This document shows positions 2,633-32,758 of a DNA stretch of 54,706 nt, piece after piece; within the stretch, counting starts at the first letter, position 1; the number at the start of each line of letters is the position of its first letter. Below the pieces are notes generated by a model. It was not told where the DNA came from and did no database searches. It saw nothing but the letters and a program-made list of their open reading frames with translations. Origin of the DNA: a virus (lineage: Duplodnaviria; Caudoviricetes); the IMG/VR virus record IMGVR_UViG_3300011269_000005, positions 1 through 54,706 of that record, one strand, 5' to 3'. A program made the translations under genes and the position numbers.

Positions 2633-3073
2633 CTACGGATTCCCCGGCTTGTGCAGACAATGGGCGAATTCGGCCGTCGAGACGTTCAGAGTCCCCGAAT
2701 CCGACACGCATTGCCAACCCAACGATGGATCGCCAGTGACCGCGTTATCGACCACGCCAGCGCCGTGCTGGATGATGAGGCCGTGAGTTGCGGTTGGTGT
2801 ATCGACTGGAGCAGCGAGTTGTGGCGGGAATGCAAAGCAGCGCAGATTGCCGCCTTCCGTCCAGCTCCACACCCAGTTGCACCGCGGCCCCGAGGCCGGA
2901 TCCATCACGATGACCGGCGTGCTCGTACCTACCGCCACGGGGGAGCCTGTGGTGCCCTTGGCGTTGATTGCCCAACCATCCGCGGTCAGAGTCGGCGATG
3001 CCGCAAATGCCCATGCTGCAGCAACGAACGATGCGACGAATAGAACGATTACCATCCGTAAGTGCCGCATCAA
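2633..3073 (-). CDS. Secreted beta-rich protein with signal peptide
   Basis: MMRHLRMVIVLFVASFVAAAWAFA leader and four Cys in the mature part. Confidence 0.7.
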   Translation of the reverse strand: MMRHLRMVIVLFVASFVAAAWAFAASPTLTADGWAINAKGTTGSPVAVGTSTPVIVMDPASGPRCNWVWSWTEGGNLRCFAFPPQLAAPVDTPTATHGLIIQHGAGVVDNAVTGDPSLGWQCVSDSGTLNVSTAEFAHCLHKPGNP

Positions 3074-3264
3074 TTCACCGCTGCGATCTTACCGGAGAAG
3101 TAATTGATGAGCTCTTCAAGGAAAGTGATCACCTGAATGTTTCCGCCGGTGAGCTTCGTTAGATCGACACGGAACTCCATATCGCCCGCGCCCGGTGCCG
3201 AAGTGCCCGCGGTAATCTGAAATTCGGTCTGGCCGACCGTTTTGCTCGCGCTGATAGATGCCAT
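3070..3264 (-). CDS. Small virion-module hypothetical protein
   Basis: GAGG SD, coupled to the next gene. Confidence 0.6.
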   Translation of the reverse strand: MASISASKTVGQTEFQITAGTSAPGAGDMEFRVDLTKLTGGNIQVITFLEELINYFSGKIAAVN

Positions 3265-3282
3265 CGCTTACCTCGGAAGGAA

Positions 3283-3298
3283 GGGGGCCGAAGCCCCC
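3283..3298 (-). terminator. GC hairpin with UUCG loop after the capsid/decoration genes (weak terminator or RNA-stabilising hairpin)
   Basis: Minus strand GGGGGC-TTCG-GCCCCC followed by TTCCTT. Confidence 0.5.
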
Positions 3299-3304
3299 AT
3301 CCGG

Positions 3305-3847
3305 CTACTGCATCTTGTAGGAAATTTCCAGCAAGATTGTCCCACCCGCGACGATGGCCGCTTCCGCGACAACCACCACGTCATATTCGGTCTGCGGATC
3401 TGCGGCGAGGCCAAGAACCTGCCAGATCATCTGGTCGGCGTTGAGCAGTGTGTAGAAATTGGTATTCGCGAATATCTGCTCCGCCTTCGTCGCGGCATTG
3501 GTCATCGCGACCGCATCGCCAAAGAACTGATCGGCGCCGGTCACGCCACCTGCCAACGTCAGCCATCCCGTGGTCGAGCTGAATCCGCCACGCAATGGAG
3601 TCTCCCAGAGGCCGATATCGACCGTCGTAGAGGCCGACAACGCGGCATTCGACAATAGACAAGAGACTACAACGGCATTTGCCGGAAGCGTGAAGAACCC
3701 ATACATCGAGGCAATTGAGTCCGCGGTCACGGTCAGCACGCGCGCCCGCTTCATGAAGTTGCGGCCTGCGGTGCGCAGATCGGACGGTAGCGGCGGTGAA
3801 GCGTCGCGATTGGTTATCACTCCTGATTTACGAATGAATACAGCCAT
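3305..3847 (-). CDS. Putative capsid decoration/cement protein
   Basis: Beta-rich 180 aa (LPANAVV, TVDIGL) just downstream of the major capsid gene, as in BPP-1-like phages. Confidence 0.65.
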   Translation of the reverse strand: MAVFIRKSGVITNRDASPPLPSDLRTAGRNFMKRARVLTVTADSIASMYGFFTLPANAVVVSCLLSNAALSASTTVDIGLWETPLRGGFSSTTGWLTLAGGVTGADQFFGDAVAMTNAATKAEQIFANTNFYTLLNADQMIWQVLGLAADPQTEYDVVVVAEAAIVAGGTILLEISYKMQ

Positions 3848-21129: not shown

Positions 21130-21484
21130 ACTCCGCAGAAGGAGCAACGGTTGAACGGCCTGTTAGTTAGCGGCCAACTAAACGAAGCGAAGTTCGCGAC
21201 AGGTCGTGATCCCGTGGCGAAGATTCAGTGCAGACTGCGCCGCTACGAAGAAGACAGCATCTGTGGAGTCGCACGATGAGAAGTGGACTGTGTCGTAAGC
21301 TCGTGTGGTGTATCGCTTGCAAACGGTGCTGGATCGGCTGCGGACTACCGAAAGGAACCTGCGTCGATAGCTTGGATCACTGGATAATCTGCGGACCCTG
21401 TAGTGATGAAGATCCAGGCTGTTGACCGGAGCAGCGAACCGGCGGAAGTCTTCGCGGAGACTCCGCCTGAAGGGAGGAAAGCGA

Positions 21485-21772
21485 ATGAACGAAGCTAAGC
21501 TAGCATTACTGGAGCGGTGCGCCAGAGAGGGCACGCTAGCGACCGCAATCGCCGAAGATGGAAGTCTCGGAGAGGAGATTATCCGCAACGTCCGCGAGAG
21601 CGCTTCGATGACTAACGTCGCAACCCGCTACACCCGCGCCTACGGATATTTGAGAAGCGCCGTGGATGGCGCGCTGGATCTGCTAACTAGAGGCGTGACT
21701 ACGCTGGAATGCGGAGCTTACGACCGCCTCAAAGATGCCGTCGAGCGAATCGACGAGGAACTAAATCAATGA
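21485..21772 (+). CDS. Hypothetical protein
   Basis: GGAGG SD before MNEAKLALL. Confidence 0.6.
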   Translation: MNEAKLALLERCAREGTLATAIAEDGSLGEEIIRNVRESASMTNVATRYTRAYGYLRSAVDGALDLLTRGVTTLECGAYDRLKDAVERIDEELNQ

Positions 21773-22036
21773 ACCGCCCAATGATCAACTTCGATCTGCG
21801 TGACTGCTACAAGCGGGCTAAGGGCGGATATATGGCTTGCTTCGACGAGAGCGGAATTCATGCAGTATTCCTCAAGCGCGGTAAGGTCTGGCGGGTTGCG
21901 CGGCTTGAACTCTGGTGGGCGATAAATCCCAAACCCAAGCTGCAAGGCTGAACAATCATGACGCCGCTCCTTACAACAACCCTCTAGAGATGGACCCGCG
22001 CGCCGACTGGGTGCAAATCCAATCGGAATTATATAT

Positions 22037-22065
22037 TTGACGAACCTACGGTCTACGGGTAGTAT
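22037..22065 (+). promoter_or_regulatory. Sigma70-type promoter directed across the tRNA (antisense) toward the Panacea gene
   Basis: TTGACG 22037-22042, 17-bp spacer, TAGTAT 22060-22065. Confidence 0.65.
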
Positions 22066-22143
22066 GGGGACCGGCATCGCGCCTTGCTAGCGCTGGCTAT
22101 TCCGGACCCGCCTCTTACCGGATGGCTGGCGCTTGTCTTAAGA

Positions 22144-22231
22144 CCGAGGGTGGGCGATTCGAACGCCCGAAGGCCCGGTGGACCTTTCCGGTTTTTGAGA
22201 CCGGTGCAATAAGCCACTCTGCCAACCCTCG
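22144..22231 (-). tRNA. 88-nt class II tRNA with a Ser-type body and anticodon CAA (Leu, UUG); no encoded CCA
   Basis: CGAGGGT TG GCAGAGTGGCTTATTGC A CCGGT CTCAAAA ACCGG A-AAGGTCC-ACC-GGGCCTT-C GGGCG TTCGAAT CGCCC ACCCTCG G. All stems pair. Confidence 0.85.
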
Positions 22232-22319
22232 GTTGTTACGGTCAGCGGGAGGGAGACGCAAGAGGCTGGGTGGCTCGTTTGGCAGACGCATCCTCGGCAA
22301 CCGCGAGCGGGGTTTCATC

Positions 22320-22748
22320 ATGGCTAGGGTTCATGACGTTGCGGCCTACATTTTAGGCGAGCGCGGGAGCATGACCACTTGGAAACTTCAGAAGTTGGTC
22401 TATTACTCTCAGGCGTGGTCGCTCGTTTGGGACGACAAGCCACTCTTTCAAGCTCGTATCGAGGCGTGGGCGAACGGACCAGTAGTTCCCGTCCTCTACA
22501 GCCATCATCGTGGTGCTTATCAGATCTCGCACTGGCCCAACGGCAGTCGAAGTGGGCTGACCACAAAGGAGCGCGAGACCGTAGATGCGGTGGTGAATTT
22601 CTACGGGCCTAAGACTTCTCAATGGCTCAGCGATCTGACCCATCTAGAAGCCCCGTGGATAAATGCTCGAAAAGGGCTTGCCCCTGGCGAGCGTGGCAAT
22701 GTGGAGATTACTCCCGCTGCGATGCTGGAATACTACAGCAGCCTGTAA
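22320..22748 (+). CDS. Panacea/SocA (DUF4065) antitoxin domain protein
   Basis: MTTWKLQKLVYYSQAW...PLF...IEAWANGPVVP...LSDLTHLEAPW. Confidence 0.9.
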   Translation: MARVHDVAAYILGERGSMTTWKLQKLVYYSQAWSLVWDDKPLFQARIEAWANGPVVPVLYSHHRGAYQISHWPNGSRSGLTTKERETVDAVVNFYGPKTSQWLSDLTHLEAPWINARKGLAPGERGNVEITPAAMLEYYSSL

Positions 22749-22983
22749 GATCCGTTGTCCAAAAAGCCAAATCCCATGGTGCCGTCGCAACCGAGGTCGA
22801 CAGCAGTTTAGTCGTAGTGTAAAAGGTGAAAGCGTACCGACCTTATTGGAACTGGCACGCACGAACATATAGGAGAGACGCTTATGCATGAAAGAGCTGG
22901 CCCGACGCGCCTTACGCCTTACCCCAAAGAGGTAATGACTAAGGGCTGAACTGGCCAATTCAGGTCGTCAGCAAGTGGAATTG

Positions 22984-23017
22984 CGGGCCATCCAACTCGG
23001 ATGGCCCGTTTTCATTT
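22984..23017 (+). terminator. Rho-independent terminator ending the rightward early block
   Basis: CGGGCCATCC-AACTC-GGATGGCCCG followed by TTTTCATTT. Confidence 0.8.
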
Positions 23018-23107
23018 CAGCGCAGCCAGATTTAAGCCGACATCAACCATAGATCCTCCAGAATTCAGGCCCTTAATGCCGAAAGAAGGCGCGGGCGTCG
23101 GTCAGGG

Positions 23108-23320
23108 TCATCGTGGTTGCTCCACGCACGGGAATAAATCTGGGTAATAGGGGTTCCACTTATCTACCTCCAACAGCGCCCAGTGTCGGCAGCGACGACA
23201 GATCCAAGCTCTACCCATTGGCTTGAGCAGGATAGCCGTCCCGCGTACCACGATGTCGGCCTCGATCTCCTGCCAGTCATGCGGATCTGGCGTTTTGTTA
23301 GCGGCAAGCCCTTCCTTCAC
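23108..23320 (-). CDS. Small CxxC hypothetical protein
   Basis: HDW...WICRRCRH, coupled to the upstream ORF. Confidence 0.5.
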   Translation of the reverse strand: MKEGLAANKTPDPHDWQEIEADIVVRGTAILLKPMGRAWICRRCRHWALLEVDKWNPYYPDLFPCVEQPR

Positions 23321-23653
23321 TGGCAGGCGTTTCCCTTCGTTAGTTTGTCGAGTTCCCGTTCCTCGCTCCGCAACGCGCGGTCGACCAAAACCCTCAGCTG
23401 CGCGCGGATGATGTGGTCGCAGACTCCAGCTCTCCTGAGCCGTTCAACCTCACGGTTCAGGTGCTGCTGAATCATCTCCGTGGCCTTCACGTGTGCTGTC
23501 AAATCCATCATTAACCTCCGATGCGTACACGTCCATAAACGTATTCTAGGTGTAGGGCGCAAAAAACCAGAGGAGATACAGCAAAACCTCTTTAGTTCAT
23601 TGCCTTATTCGCTTGCTGTTGCTGTATGGATCACTTAAGGTCTACAGCAAACA

Positions 23654-25687
23654 TCAATCTTGCGATTCCCCGCCAAACAGTTTATCGGTCGGCTTCGCCC
23701 CATCGTAAGGCAACCAATATCGGTAGCCCTTCCCTCTCTTGCTGCGCTCAAGCTGCTTGTTCTCGTAAAGCTGTTTTAAGGCGTTCTGTGCCTCCGGTCG
23801 GTTAATCTCCAATGCCTTCATCACTTCTGTGACCGAAAACTCCTTCCCTGGCTCATCACTCTCGATTAGCGCCATCACCCGCGGTGCATAGACGACCCAT
23901 TTCATCCAGTTCTTGAAGTCCCCTTTCGATGCCGCGATCCCATCGAGACCTACATTCACCACGGTCGGGCTAATCGGCACCCCGCGCGGATCCCGCGCCA
24001 TCGTGCTTTCGACTGTGAAGAGATTATCCGCCCATTTACGAGCCAATATGATCGGGCTGAACCTAGCCGCGATCCCTTGACTACCCAACGCCGCCACCGC
24101 CGCTGTCGCGATATCGGGCAGGTGCTTCGGTGAATGATGGCTCGCCTCGACGTGGCTTTCAGTCTGGGATGCCAATGTCTGCATCATTCCGACGGCTTCC
24201 CGAGTGCCTGCATAGCTCATTTCGTCCTTGATTCCCACGAAATCAAACAGCATATCGCAGGCGATAAAGGCCGTTTTATGACGGATTGCCTGTTCCGCGA
24301 TTGCGTCCAAAACGGCTCTCGGTTCAGCAGCCGCACCTTGCTCCGTATTGACGTGTACCAGCGCCAACGGGTCTTCTCGCGCATTCCAGCCCATCCTCAG
24401 CAACTCCATGCGAGCCGTCATCACTTCGTCCTCAGAGGCAGCATAGATAACATGGCCCTGTAGGGTCTGCCGCCCCAAGAACGGCAGGCCCTTGGCTATC
24501 GCCAGCGCAAGACTGCGCAAAATCGTGCTCTTCCCGTGATGCTTCCCGCCAACGATCAGAGAAATCGCGCTCGAATAAAGCAGGCTCTCTACAACCGGTT
24601 GGCGCTTCAAGTAGGCTTCGTTGGCGATGACCGCTTGATCGCGGTCTTCCCAAATGATGAGTGAACGCGCTGGAACAATTCCGTTGGCGTTGCGGTTCTG
24701 AACAGTCGGGAGCCTGAAGGTATCCTGTAGCTGCGTCGCCAGCCATTGCAGTTCCTCATCTATCTCGACTGGCGTCAGTGCCGGATCGCGCGTCAGCCCG
24801 TCTTGGGGCAAGTTCCGGTGCTTGTTCAGCGAGGCTACCCAGTTATCCAAGGTCGAGCTGGCTAACATCCCCCGTGTCAACTCGCGCTCAGGTCCAAGCG
24901 GCGCCTTATTGAGCATCCCCTCGCTCTCGCCCTTCACCCGGTCATAGAGATTCAACTTCCACGACGTAACGTCAGGAGTCCGCAATGCGGGCACCTCAGA
25001 GCCGTTCTGCGTCCCGTTCTGCCCTGAGGCTAGCTGTCGTCCCGTCCCCCGCTTGACGCCGCCCTCTGCGGGTGCTACTCGTGAATTCTCCTCCGAGTGT
25101 GAAGAAGCTACGTTCGCCGCCCCGGATGCTCGTTCCCCCGACGCCGGGGCGGTCGCGTCTTCGACTCCTATAGTCCAAGCCGCCCCGTTATGTTGGCGTT
25201 CGGTATTTCGCCTTGAGGCCGATCCCCCTGGGCGATCTGATTGAGGCGATATGCCAACTCGCCGAGTTCCTTCCGTGTCAGCATCTGCCGCCCCCCTAGA
25301 TCTATTTCGTAGGCGTCCATCGGCCGTCCCTCGAACGTCCGCAATCGCCGAATCTTGATCTTCCGTGCCCTCATCGCGTCCTCCTGACTGGTTAGCCAAA
25401 TTGGCACGGGCGGCGGGAGTCGAACCTTGCGGAGCATGGCTAGCACTCTCCGCATTTTGCGCCACCTCCGGGTTAACGACCCGGTGCTCTCCCTCGAGAG
25501 CTTCGCCCGTAAACTCCGCCTCTGTCAGCGTCCGCTCGATATCGCACGACAGATAGATGTTCCGCGTGAATTGATGCGCCCTCGCTCGGCATGGCGGCCC
25601 GTGCTTCTTGCACGCCGTCGTGAACGTTCTGGCGTCCTGCCAGGTCACGTCTTCCAGGTCGGCGGCAAGGTCAGAGAGCGTCATCAT
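23654..25687 (-). CDS. RepA-like AAA (AAA_25) helicase/replication protein with long disordered linker and C-terminal winged helix
   Basis: Walker A GGKHHGKST, FLGRQT..GHVIYAASED, Walker B IACD, SHHSPK. Probable start at the ATGA overlap 25687. Confidence 0.8.
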   Translation of the reverse strand: MMTLSDLAADLEDVTWQDARTFTTACKKHGPPCRARAHQFTRNIYLSCDIERTLTEAEFTGEALEGEHRVVNPEVAQNAESASHAPQGSTPAARANLANQSGGRDEGTEDQDSAIADVRGTADGRLRNRSRGAADADTEGTRRVGISPQSDRPGGSASRRNTERQHNGAAWTIGVEDATAPASGERASGAANVASSHSEENSRVAPAEGGVKRGTGRQLASGQNGTQNGSEVPALRTPDVTSWKLNLYDRVKGESEGMLNKAPLGPERELTRGMLASSTLDNWVASLNKHRNLPQDGLTRDPALTPVEIDEELQWLATQLQDTFRLPTVQNRNANGIVPARSLIIWEDRDQAVIANEAYLKRQPVVESLLYSSAISLIVGGKHHGKSTILRSLALAIAKGLPFLGRQTLQGHVIYAASEDEVMTARMELLRMGWNAREDPLALVHVNTEQGAAAEPRAVLDAIAEQAIRHKTAFIACDMLFDFVGIKDEMSYAGTREAVGMMQTLASQTESHVEASHHSPKHLPDIATAAVAALGSQGIAARFSPIILARKWADNLFTVESTMARDPRGVPISPTVVNVGLDGIAASKGDFKNWMKWVVYAPRVMALIESDEPGKEFSVTEVMKALEINRPEAQNALKQLYENKQLERSKRGKGYRYWLPYDGAKPTDKLFGGESQD
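25168..25374 (-). CDS. 68-aa gene nested in the +1 frame of the Rep linker
   Basis: AGGAGG-N5-ATG, then MRARKIKIRRLRTFEGRPMDAYEIDLGGRQMLTRKELGELAYRLNQIA... Confidence 0.55.
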   Translation of the reverse strand: MRARKIKIRRLRTFEGRPMDAYEIDLGGRQMLTRKELGELAYRLNQIAQGDRPQGEIPNANITGRLGL

Positions 25688-25923
25688 TCTGGATGCCCAG
25701 GGCAACCAGTCTTCGGATCGAAACCTTCGCATGGCCCAGTCGGCAGTAGTTCATGTCCCTTTGCTAACTCGTCCATCAAAGCCTCGCGCAATTCTATCGG
25801 CGAGCGGAAATGACCGCCGTCATCTTTCGTGACCCACTGTAGCGCGCGACGTAAGTCGCGGTCCGAGTAGTGAAGTAGGCCACGCACCGATTGAGCCAGA
25901 TGGATTACGCGGTACGGTTTCAT
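25684..25923 (-). CDS. Conserved small phage protein
   Basis: SVRGLL...GHELLP.GPCEGFD.KTGCPGH motif, with ATGA overlaps at both ends. Confidence 0.65.
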   Translation of the reverse strand: MKPYRVIHLAQSVRGLLHYSDRDLRRALQWVTKDDGGHFRSPIELREALMDELAKGHELLPTGPCEGFDPKTGCPGHPE

Positions 25924-30970: not shown

Positions 30971-32758
30971 ATGAAGAAGTGGACTATCACCCCGTTAGCC
31001 GTTTCACTATTCCTGATGCTAGCGACACTATCTTGGGCGCAAGGAATATCATATCCTTCGTGTCGATCTGACGGTGGCCAAGGTACGACCGCCGCCGATT
31101 CAATTAGCGCAACTCTATCATCTCCGTTAGGCGCTACCCGGCAGATGGGGCCGTTGGGCGTTTATTTAAGCAGTGGTATACCATCTTATTATGCAGGCTT
31201 CGCCTTCTTCGGATTAGGCGGTTTAGTATATGATGGAGGAGTATCGTCTAGCGGTACTACATCAATGTTTGTATTGCGGCATCAATTTGAGGGAATATTC
31301 TTAGATGACGCAGCCCTGCCCACCGATTGCACGCCCTCTTTAATATCGGGTGCATTTGTAGGTAATCCATGTCCTAAGAAACTGGTAGTTACCGATGGCT
31401 GCGGCGCTTGGAGTACTGAGTATGGCTATAGAACGGTAGGATTAGGCGGAACGGCGATTTACGCGCCTCTTCCATATCGTCAACAATATATAGGCGACTC
31501 ACTTCATCCCGGTATTGATGCTGCTCTCGTGCCTCTACTAACGCCCGCGTATGATATAAATGGAGGGCATCAATCGGGCGGTATTTTTTCGGCAGGTGCT
31601 TACGACTCTCACATACCGAATATAAGCGTTTATCCATGGAACGGTCCCATTCGGCCGGGTACTGAAGTAGTGATTGATGATATAACGCATGGTATTATGG
31701 TAGGAAAGGTAGGGGCGCTGGTCCGCTCAATGCGAGTAGACTATAGTAGCGGTGGCTATCAAGGCGATCCTAACTATAAAGCATTTAGTCCGATATTACG
31801 AGGCAATCTACAATCATATCTAACCGTTGAAGGGATGGGCTTTCAAATTAGCTTAGGAGATATGGGGAGCCCGGTTTATACATTTAGCCCAGACTGCCCT
31901 CAAGTAATAGGTCATATGGTGGCATTAGATAGCCCCGATAATATTGTTACTATTGAATTAGACAACGGAGCCGTGTTGCCCGGTCTTATTGCATCGAGCA
32001 ATGGCCAAATAGCGCAATTGAACGAAGCAGGCAATTCCGTGTGTAGAAAAGATAATACTCCCACACCACCAATGCTAGGAGAAAATTGGCTTCCTAATAT
32101 TACCATGAGCGCATATTTAACAGGACGCTATAAGTTAATGGATGATTTTCTATCATCTAAGTGCGTATATCCCGATGGACGCAATTGCGGCGCTACAACG
32201 TGGGGAGATTTTATAGCGAGCGTCGATTCGCGTATTCAAGCGGTGGGCGCGAAGGACAATTCTGATGCGACGGGCACGAATACCCAAGGCGATGTTTACT
32301 GGAACGTCCACCTATATACCACTACTACCGTGAGCCCCAACGACATCTACAACAGGATTCTCATTGCCGTTATGCCGGGTACTGGAAAAACTGGGTATTA
32401 TGGTTCGGTCCTTGGCGCAATGGTAAATTGGGGGCTAGCGATTCCACCCATCATCGATCCCTACACACTTCAATACGACGACTACATACCAAATGTTGTT
32501 CAGGGCGGTGTCGGTGTAGAGACGGTTGTACTAGCTAAAGGCCGTAATACTTCTAATAATCTCGAAGCACAACAAGGTAATACTATTGTTATCGGTGGTG
32601 TAATGTTCAACGCACAACCGAATCCCCCCGGTACACCGCCAGCTCCACCTGCCCTCTCACCAACTCCAGATGGAGGTACGATCCCCGCTGGAGACTTCAA
32701 CGGCGCGTCACCAATAGCCCCAGGTGGGGATGCGCCGAATGGAGCGCCGATCCTCTGA
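30971..32758 (+). CDS. Secreted trypsin-like (S1) protease homologue, probably inactive, AT-rich moron
   Basis: Signal MKKWTITPLAVSLFLMLATLSWA, VLRHQF (His), IDAALV (Asp), GDMGSPV in place of GDSGS. Visibly more AT-rich than the flanks. Confidence 0.6.
   Translation: MKKWTITPLAVSLFLMLATLSWAQGISYPSCRSDGGQGTTAADSISATLSSPLGATRQMGPLGVYLSSGIPSYYAGFAFFGLGGLVYDGGVSSSGTTSMFVLRHQFEGIFLDDAALPTDCTPSLISGAFVGNPCPKKLVVTDGCGAWSTEYGYRTVGLGGTAIYAPLPYRQQYIGDSLHPGIDAALVPLLTPAYDINGGHQSGGIFSAGAYDSHIPNISVYPWNGPIRPGTEVVIDDITHGIMVGKVGALVRSMRVDYSSGGYQGDPNYKAFSPILRGNLQSYLTVEGMGFQISLGDMGSPVYTFSPDCPQVIGHMVALDSPDNIVTIELDNGAVLPGLIASSNGQIAQLNEAGNSVCRKDNTPTPPMLGENWLPNITMSAYLTGRYKLMDDFLSSKCVYPDGRNCGATTWGDFIASVDSRIQAVGAKDNSDATGTNTQGDVYWNVHLYTTTTVSPNDIYNRILIAVMPGTGKTGYYGSVLGAMVNWGLAIPPIIDPYTLQYDDYIPNVVQGGVGVETVVLAKGRNTSNNLEAQQGNTIVIGGVMFNAQPNPPGTPPAPPALSPTPDGGTIPAGDFNGASPIAPGGDAPNGAPIL

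Follow-up and report, generated by a model that had tools for sequence, protein, structure and literature searches.

The genome of a soil phage, IMG/VR record IMGVR_UViG_3300011269_000005, carries a tRNA gene that, judged by its sequence, is intact, derived from a serine tRNA and equipped with the leucine anticodon CAA. The complete record, a single contig of 54,706 bases with a G+C content of 56.5%, is referred to here as the window; the gene lies at 22144–22231 on its minus strand (88 nt) and has a canonical 7/5 cloverleaf, a body of the tRNA-Ser type, G73 and no encoded CCA, with the anticodon C34 A35 A36 (TTG on the plus strand) at 22195–22197 inside the loop CUCAAAA. The reading that we favour, with middling confidence, is that this tRNA would be serylated, would read UUG and would thus be a natural Leu-to-Ser missense suppressor. 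To our knowledge, few natural bacterial tRNAs deliberately violate the code at a sense codon. If serylated, the tRNA would mean that a virus carries a ready-made Leu-to-Ser mistranslator, and it would offer a simple system in which to probe controlled mistranslation, be it as host shut-off, as exclusion of rival phages or as a switch resembling a toxin–antitoxin system formed with PanA, the antitoxin-domain protein encoded beside it. Such genes are mislabelled as tRNA-Leu by tRNA finders that name a tRNA from its anticodon.

ARAGORN finds a single tRNA in the window (22142–22232, minus strand), which it labels as Leu with anticodon caa, and a local search with Rfam family RF00005 places it at 22144–22231 on the minus strand (52.2 bits against a gathering score of 29, E 5.8e-10), this being the sole Rfam family match across the whole window. 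Both programs and a direct reading of the sequence agree on the position of the anticodon, as given in an initial annotation of this DNA, and the bases and pairs named there (C1-G72, G2-C71, A3-U70, C11-G24, G15, C48, G73 and the loop CU-CAA-AA) are all present when the minus strand is read. The remainder of the acceptor stem consists of G4-C69, G5-C68, G6-C67 and U7-A66, and is followed by U8 and G9, a D stem of G10-C25, C11-G24, A12-U23 and G13.U22, and a D loop that reads A14 G15 U16 G18 G19 C20 U20a U20b A21. The anticodon stem is CCGGU/ACCGG and includes G30-C40, and the run A36-A37-A38 is a context seen in tRNAs that read UNN codons. In the variable arm a single unpaired A44 precedes a stem of 6–7 bp, AAGGUC(C)/(G)GGCCUU, which runs straight into C48 with no unpaired base between, as had been described; the T stem is GGGCG/CGCCC and its loop UUCGAAU. 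Altogether 21 of 21 stem pairs are intact. At the 3′ end G73 (the G at 22144, minus strand) is followed by UCU. ARAGORN draws the acceptor stem with 8 bp because in the leader C-1 pairs with G73, a pairing that A-2 and U74 could extend; a 7-bp stem with a free G73 is supported by two of the relatives described below (L218 and L247), which encode CCA straight after G73. Identity as tRNA-Sec was considered and ruled out by the CAA anticodon (not UCA) and the 4-bp D stem (not 6), RF00005 being the best match of its Rfam clan.

The identity of the body can be judged against the bacterial determinants set out in the parts of PMC9976931 drawn on here, in which those for serine are G73, C72, G2-C71, R4-Y69, C11-G24, a large variable region and G30-C40 (Table 1), those for leucine are A73 and the tertiary elements A15-U48, G18 G19 and A20a, and G73 is listed as an antideterminant against the leucyl- and tyrosyl-tRNA synthetases, LeuRS and TyrRS (Table 3). 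By this list the window tRNA has six of the seven serine determinants (G73, G2-C71, R4-Y69, C11-G24, G30-C40 and the large variable region), the exception being C72. The leucine set is largely lacking: there is G73 and not A73, G15 and C48 and not A15-U48, and U20a and not A20a; G18 G19 and the T loop UUCGAAU are present, but the spacing of the D loop is of the serine type. The claim that serine identity elements are combined here with a leucine anticodon is therefore upheld, as it also is by the isotype models below. A layout with a single N48, like that of the window tRNA, is found in 39 of the 47 Ser tRNAs of the comparison set parsed by ARAGORN. The exact 18-nt D arm occurs at least 116 times among the matches listed, 114 times with a serine anticodon, once with an odd loop and once in the window tRNA itself. 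Its nearest neighbour is a tRNA-Ser(UGA) with 75% identity, 36 of its 40 closest canonical comparators are Ser tRNAs, and the annotated matches in cultured phages are all tRNA-Ser. The anticodon arm alone is not specific to serine, because the identical 17-mer, CCGGUCUCAAAAACCGG, is also carried by 10 canonical tRNA-Leu(CAA) genes among 14 viral stretches, and the same arm is found in a Chloroflexota tRNA-Leu. Searches for the exact D arm and anticodon arm together in genome contigs, and for a Ser-type D loop joined to this anticodon arm in viral contigs, returned nothing, and blastn of the window tRNA against E. coli genomes gave no match.

Home-made isotype models point the same way. Hidden Markov models (HMMs) were built from class II tRNAs called by ARAGORN in the fetched loci, with the anticodons masked, and gave the window tRNA 39.6 bits as Ser, 11.5 as Leu and 17.0 as Tyr; when Ser tRNAs with the window's own D arm were dropped from training (43 of 78 left) the scores were 32.8 bits for Ser against 11.5 for Leu. 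In five-fold cross-validation the difference Ser minus Leu was above zero for 39 of 43 true Ser tRNAs (median +21.1) and for 1 of 43 true Leu tRNAs (median -31.0). Covariance models (CMs) of 47 Ser and 47 Leu tRNAs, which retained the anticodons and so favour Leu, scored the window tRNA at 72.4 bits as Ser and 51.5 as Leu, placing the Leu model about 21 bits below, whilst three canonical tRNA-Leu(CAA) controls, themselves members of the training set, scored 64.8/93.8, 68.0/93.5 and 61.2/86.6 bits (Ser/Leu).

These results bear directly on an alternative in which the gene is a working leucine tRNA, accepted by the host LeuRS, that supplements UUG decoding for a phage using TTG more than its host does. 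The alternative gains from the absence of C72, and from a Chloroflexota tRNA described further below (L155), in which a Ser-derived body with CAA carries A73-CCA and which suggests that Ser-to-Leu shifts do occur on such bodies. It is nevertheless quite unlikely. In the parts of PMC9976931 cited above G73 stands as a LeuRS antideterminant, and A73, A15-U48 and A20a are all absent from the window tRNA; the Leu model scores 21 bits under the Ser model; all 47 canonical tRNAs with Leu anticodons in the Leu model have A73; and the rule of A73 for Leu and G73 for Ser is kept by all regular Leu and Ser tRNAs of two bacterial genomes that hold tRNAs of the present kind or close to it, one of the Gemmatimonadales (G001) and one of the Chloroflexota (G002).

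The CAA anticodon is not an assembly slip. The initial annotation had called for support at the anticodon, and independently assembled contigs from three runs of three studies (X1, X3 and X5) show CAA and cover the tRNA with 0 differences; they span 22069–23200, 21200–23200 and 22069–23200, respectively, at depths of about 10–17, and no alternative letters are listed between 22101 and 22394 in any of them. The evidence is at the level of contigs, from which rare variants are lost, and the record itself may stem from one of these runs. What TTG means in the phage was read from its genes. The codon accounts for 158 of 1060 Leu codons (15%) in 40 open reading frames (ORFs), or 12.1 per 1000 codons. 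At 7 TTG columns of the portal gene, aligned with 118 homologues of at most 74% identity, Leu makes up 512 of 823 residues, L/I/V/M/F together 652 of 823 and Ser 0 of 823, and at 18 TTG columns of the helicase gene, with 8 homologues, Leu makes up 63 and Ser 1 of 121. A recoding of TTG to Ser in the phage was thus rejected, since its TTG codons stand at conserved Leu positions in both genes. Serine at UUG would be mistranslation for the phage as well, which argues against selective sabotage of the host as much as against recoding; host sabotage in the form first put forward lacks the selectivity that it would need, and that part of the initial proposal finds no support as worded. Because the phage's TTG codons mean Leu, a Leu-charged tRNA would be the useful one, and the extent of TTG use also counts for the leucine alternative.

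In the serine reading that we favour, a minus-strand transcript of the window tRNA gene would have its ends cut by RNase P and RNase Z and, as the gene encodes no CCA, would receive it post-transcriptionally. Charging of the tRNA would then fall to the seryl-tRNA synthetase (SerRS) of the host, which would read the long variable arm, G73 and the pairs of the acceptor and D stems and ignore the anticodon, and LeuRS is proposed to reject it because G73 is present and A15-U48 and A20a are lacking; charging by SerRS, and not by LeuRS, is what the established identity rules would predict. The resulting Ser-tRNA(CAA) would compete with the host's Leu-tRNAs at UUG, and some UUG codons would be translated as serine in the proteins of both host and phage. 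That the tRNA is expressed, processed and used in decoding is something we infer from its sequence. Several observations weigh against this reading. The pairing of C-1 and A-2 with G73 and U74 means that the precursor may be cut differently, and the search for a promoter and a terminator of the tRNA turned up no convincing candidate. The serine determinant C72 is replaced by C1-G72, a pair rightly called unusual at the outset, since the 10 other G73 members of the group all have G1-C72. The phage does not avoid TTG, and with its TTG codons at conserved Leu positions an efficient insertion of serine would damage the phage too. The isotype models were trained mostly on phage-borne tRNAs, together with two metagenome-assembled genomes and one archaeon and no curated reference set, and they misplace one A73 tRNA, L155, which counted as a 'true Leu'. 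Finally, a tRNA is present in 0 of 80 loci of portal relatives.

Ten further Ser-bodied tRNAs with G73 and CAA were found in viral contigs, one metagenome contig and two Gemmatimonadota genomes, which answers an initial call for homologues retaining CAA. Eight of the ten came from patterns that required CAA, seven of these from patterns that also required G73, so the number of relatives is a lower bound and says nothing of frequency; the tRNA of viral contig L002 (2655–2742, minus strand), which has G73 and all seven Ser determinants, came from an unconstrained protein search. The other viral members are L184 (10130–10226), L196 (11959–12054), L199 (9227–9321), L208 (8013–8115), L218 and L247, the last two with G73 followed by encoded CCA. 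L153 (2126–2230; Rfam 55.9 bits) is on the metagenome contig, L154 (64–171; Rfam 52.0 bits) belongs to the Gemmatimonadales genome G001 and L258 to the second Gemmatimonadota genome. The nine beyond L002 all score higher as Ser than as Leu, by +2.2 to +21.5 bits with the HMMs (for all but L258, which was outside the HMM run) and by +6.3 to +24.5 bits with the CMs, the weakest margin being that of L218, with its A15/U48-like core. In six members (L153, L154, L184, L196, L199 and L208) the variable region is 26–39 nt long, far above the usual length, and ARAGORN misses 4 of the 11 G73 members, which are found by Rfam or by the home-made models. Among 401 Gemmatimonadota genomes sampled, four match the pattern and two of the four matches are convincing tRNAs. 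In G001 regular Ser tRNAs and a canonical A73 tRNA-Leu(CAA) are present as well, and the odd tRNA resembles the tRNA-Ser(UGA) of that genome; as G001 and G002 each hold a canonical A73 tRNA-Leu(CAA), their odd CAA tRNAs are extras. Transposases lie beside L153 (DDE_Tnp_1, 1.1e-18), L258 (IS1595 type, 2e-37) and, with a weak match, L154, an HNH endonuclease lies beside L247, and phage structural genes lie beside L218 and L002. These neighbours (transposases, a homing endonuclease and phage genes) suggest that the relatives form a dispersed accessory class.

The relatives also bear on whether CAA has been selected at all. The gene might be a neutral or decaying anticodon mutant that arose from a phage tRNA-Ser(CGA) by one transition, G35 to A, and hitch-hikes in a mosaic region with CAA unselected. 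CGA is indeed one transition away, C1-G72 is atypical, the region swaps frequently and the 80 loci of portal relatives are without a tRNA. We regard this origin as decidedly unlikely, because all 21 stem pairs are intact and because the gene is identical in assemblies from three runs of three studies, though these may include the source of the DNA. Moreover, between the window tRNA and that of L002 nine stem pairs are changed on both sides and are still paired, the anticodon and T loops are identical, and L002 keeps CAA and its PanA partner despite these nine double-sided changes. Nine other G73 members are, in addition, spread across phages, a metagenome contig and two bacterial genomes.

The PanA gene encodes a 142-aa protein with a SocA/Panacea antitoxin domain (22320–22748, plus strand; PF13274, 8.9e-18, 65.7 bits against a cut-off of 25.7; phrog_1281, 1.5e-32). 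It is divergent from the tRNA, with 88 nt between the 5′ end of the tRNA and the PanA ATG. Together with a doubtful 103-aa ORF downstream of the tRNA (21766–22077, minus strand), which has no Pfam or PHROG match and no counterpart in L002, the two genes make up an accessory cassette at 21760–22817, the flanks of which are common to the closest relative contig, L262. This contig (portal 97% identical in amino acids) is syntenic on both sides and has an unrelated 707 nt replacing 21760–22817; the common sequence resumes 69 nt past the PanA stop, and the metagenome contigs X1, X3 and X5 also diverge at 21759, the left boundary of the cassette. The sequence at 21760–22817 thus occupies a swappable accessory slot, seemingly a hot spot for cargo; in the equivalent slot of L262 a 146-aa ORF of no known family is found (L262:3289–3729). 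In L002 a PanA gene whose product is 64% identical (3001–3429, plus strand) is divergent from the Ser-bodied tRNA(CAA), as in the window. Only the tRNA and PanA genes are common to the two contigs, and the spacer between them is not conserved. Linkage to PanA was rejected as a general rule, since a tRNA is present at 1 of 24 viral loci of PanA homologues (one of these loci lacking upstream DNA), and PanA is absent beside the other nine G73 members.

A different use of the same structure is as a non-decoding, tRNA-shaped RNA, which, alongside PanA, would serve a host toxin that attacks tRNAs as a decoy or stand-in substrate, or would regulate the divergent PanA gene. Linkage to PanA in two otherwise unrelated phage contigs, and the accessory slot itself, are consistent with such an RNA. 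As described in the sections of PMC8832971 used here, PanA antitoxins neutralise many toxins, several of which hit translation (enzymes that pyrophosphorylate the tRNA CCA end, and RNases), and some relatives of the allo-tRNAs considered below are inactive in translation and have been proposed to belong with toxin–antitoxin systems or transposons (PMC5389517). Two divergent promoter-like sites lie 3′ of the tRNA, at 22055–22028 (minus) and 22037–22065 (plus), and the plus site would transcribe the tRNA antisense into PanA. We nonetheless hold a non-decoding RNA to be unlikely, if far from negligible, as the decoding apparatus is complete (a 7-nt loop, U33, A36-A37-A38, 5-bp anticodon and T stems, G18 G19 and UUCGAAU). 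CAA is present in 11 of 11 G73 members, which is partly by design, as eight were found with CAA-requiring patterns, and a single tRNA species would soak up little of a toxin that attacks every tRNA.

For the serylated tRNA that we prefer, the role could, speculatively, be a conflict function of the tRNA–PanA cassette, as a growth-arresting or translation-perturbing effector or in counter-defence, and not recoding; the idea is prompted by the occurrence of the pair in two phages, by the interchangeable slot and by the mobile-element genes found next to the relatives. A stronger version, which we consider very unlikely, would make the tRNA and the Panacea protein one functional module, a cassette that moves between unrelated soil phages within a wider, undescribed class of mobile-element tRNAs of canonical shape with a Ser body and CAA, many with variable arms of 26–39 nt. 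In such a module either the mistranslating Ser-tRNA(CAA) would be a toxic or effector RNA restrained by PanA, or the tRNA and PanA would jointly counter a host defence that targets tRNA.

The nearest known systems differ from the window tRNA in instructive ways. The allo-tRNAs (Mukai et al. 2017, PMC5389517) likewise combine Ser identity elements (a long variable arm and G73) with a non-Ser anticodon, the anticodons including Leu ones for UUA, UUG, CUA and CUG; they too are of soil origin and are associated with toxin–antitoxin and transposon-related genes. Their insertion of Ser at Leu codons, and an arrest of E. coli growth by them, have been demonstrated. They are, however, defined by a 12-bp acceptor branch split 8/4 or 9/3, by a lengthened anticodon stem and by a long D stem capped by a tetraloop, whereas the window tRNA is 7/5 (8/5 and not 8/4 in the ARAGORN alternative), its D stem has 4 bp, its D loop 9 nt and its anticodon stem 5 bp, and it is phage-encoded and paired with PanA. 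The initial comparison with allo-tRNAs therefore holds for the Ser elements joined to a foreign anticodon and fails for the structure. Ordinary bacterial and phage tRNA-Ser (CGA, UGA) have the same body, D arm, variable-arm geometry and G73, with neighbours at 70–75% identity, and differ in the Ser anticodon and in having G1-C72 where the window tRNA has CAA and C1-G72. Canonical tRNA-Leu(CAA) has the same anticodon, and often the whole anticodon arm noted above; its A73, its D loop with A14 A15 and G18 G19 one base later, its 3-bp D stem and the unpaired bases that separate its variable stem from its T stem are all missing from the window tRNA. The tRNA-Ser(CAG) of CTG-clade yeasts and the human tRNA-Ser anticodon variants, as far as the sources used cover them, also join a Ser body to a Leu or Phe anticodon and mistranslate sense codons naturally, but they are eukaryotic chromosomal genes, and in the yeasts the codon is reassigned genome-wide, whereas the phage's TTG is still Leu. 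In the part of the literature that was searched, no description was found of a natural tRNA-Ser(CAA) or of any phage case, and names of the tRNASerCAA type led only to a paper on a synthetic in-vitro code. On its sequence, the gene would best be classed as a derivative of tRNA-Ser that keeps the canonical shape and has a Leu anticodon, probably a phage-borne natural missense suppressor with allo-tRNA-like action.

PanA–PanT pairs, as described in the sections of PMC8832971 used here, have the Panacea domain in common with the window's neighbour gene. They differ in that the window cassette is without a protein toxin gene, and in those sections a tRNA partner is not mentioned. No adjacent co-oriented protein toxin gene was found in the window cassette, the ORFs at 21766–22077 and 23183–23470 having no family match. 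In L002 an ORF overlaps the PanA stop, as in a two-gene pair (L002:3429–3866). This ORF, which continues past the end of the contig and gave no Pfam match, is a candidate for a PanT toxin of no known family. At L016:1668–1848, about 1.2 kb upstream of a viral PanA homologue, matches to isrK (61.3 bits) and C4 antisense RNA (57.2 bits) are adjacent.

Several smaller features accompany the cassette. The stretch just 3′ of the tRNA, 22026–22137, is about 94% identical to other contigs of the same soils, which depart at 22137; a structured RNA there was considered and rejected (fold z = 0.2; sX4 match of 22.7 bits against a gathering score of 70). Searches for repeats flanking the cassette gave only short matches, which are probably due to chance. 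A 15-nt inverted repeat, with arms at 22227–22241 and 22782–22796 that are 87% complementary, brackets the PanA gene from the 5′ end of the tRNA to just past the PanA stop. A 15-nt direct repeat at 22211–22225 and 22437–22451 (13 of 15 identical), probably chance, makes the D-arm region of the tRNA complementary to a stretch inside the PanA mRNA. A reading of the tRNA as an attP or integration site was rejected: the tRNA is full length, and a scan of 40 ORFs revealed no integrase.

The Chloroflexota tRNA L155 (L155:597–683, minus strand, contig C16 of G002) has the window's anticodon arm on a body near the tRNA-Ser(UGA) and tRNA-Ser(CGA) of its own genome, with an A73-CCA end and an extra unpaired base before the T stem. 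From its sequence it may be a Ser-derived tRNA shifted towards Leu identity, perhaps with the switch in progress, and would then be a snapshot of a Ser-to-Leu identity switch. It adjoins a 72-nt 'tRNA-Ser(gga)' that is without a long variable arm. Elsewhere in G002 (L249:25–113, contig C8) ARAGORN calls a tRNA-SeC(tca) but gives it an acceptor stem of 7 bp, a long variable arm and G73-CCA; the gene may encode either a genuine tRNA-Sec or an opal suppressor with a Ser body. In the Gemmatimonadales genome G001 a tRNA array of about 3.6 kb with 18 ARAGORN calls (L157, G001:C1:3671300–3675100) holds most of the Ser tRNAs of that genome and two of its Leu tRNAs.

The genome around the cassette is that of a podovirus-like soil phage. 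Its recognised virion proteins are a T7-type head-to-tail connector (phrog_332, 1.8e-123), the tail tubular proteins and fibres, and an internal protein that has a transglycosylase end; also encoded are a large terminase, a PD-(D/E)XK exonuclease, an endonuclease VII and a DnaB-like helicase. The portal is at most 40% identical to those of cultured phages, Megablast of 6 kb of the window against cultured phages gave no match, and no relatives of the helicase-primase were found among viral contigs. Every run that contains the stretch is labelled soil metagenome. Two further ORFs deserve comment. The 692-aa ORF at 23654–25732 (minus strand) is probably over-long, as the recorded protein, a DnaB-like helicase (PF13481), has 433 aa and its start, a TTG codon, corresponds to residue 260 or 261 of the ORF. 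The 595-aa ORF at 30971–32758 (plus strand), which is without a Pfam or PHROG match, has a third-position G+C of 0.41 against 0.6–0.7 in its neighbours and may be a recent foreign gene.

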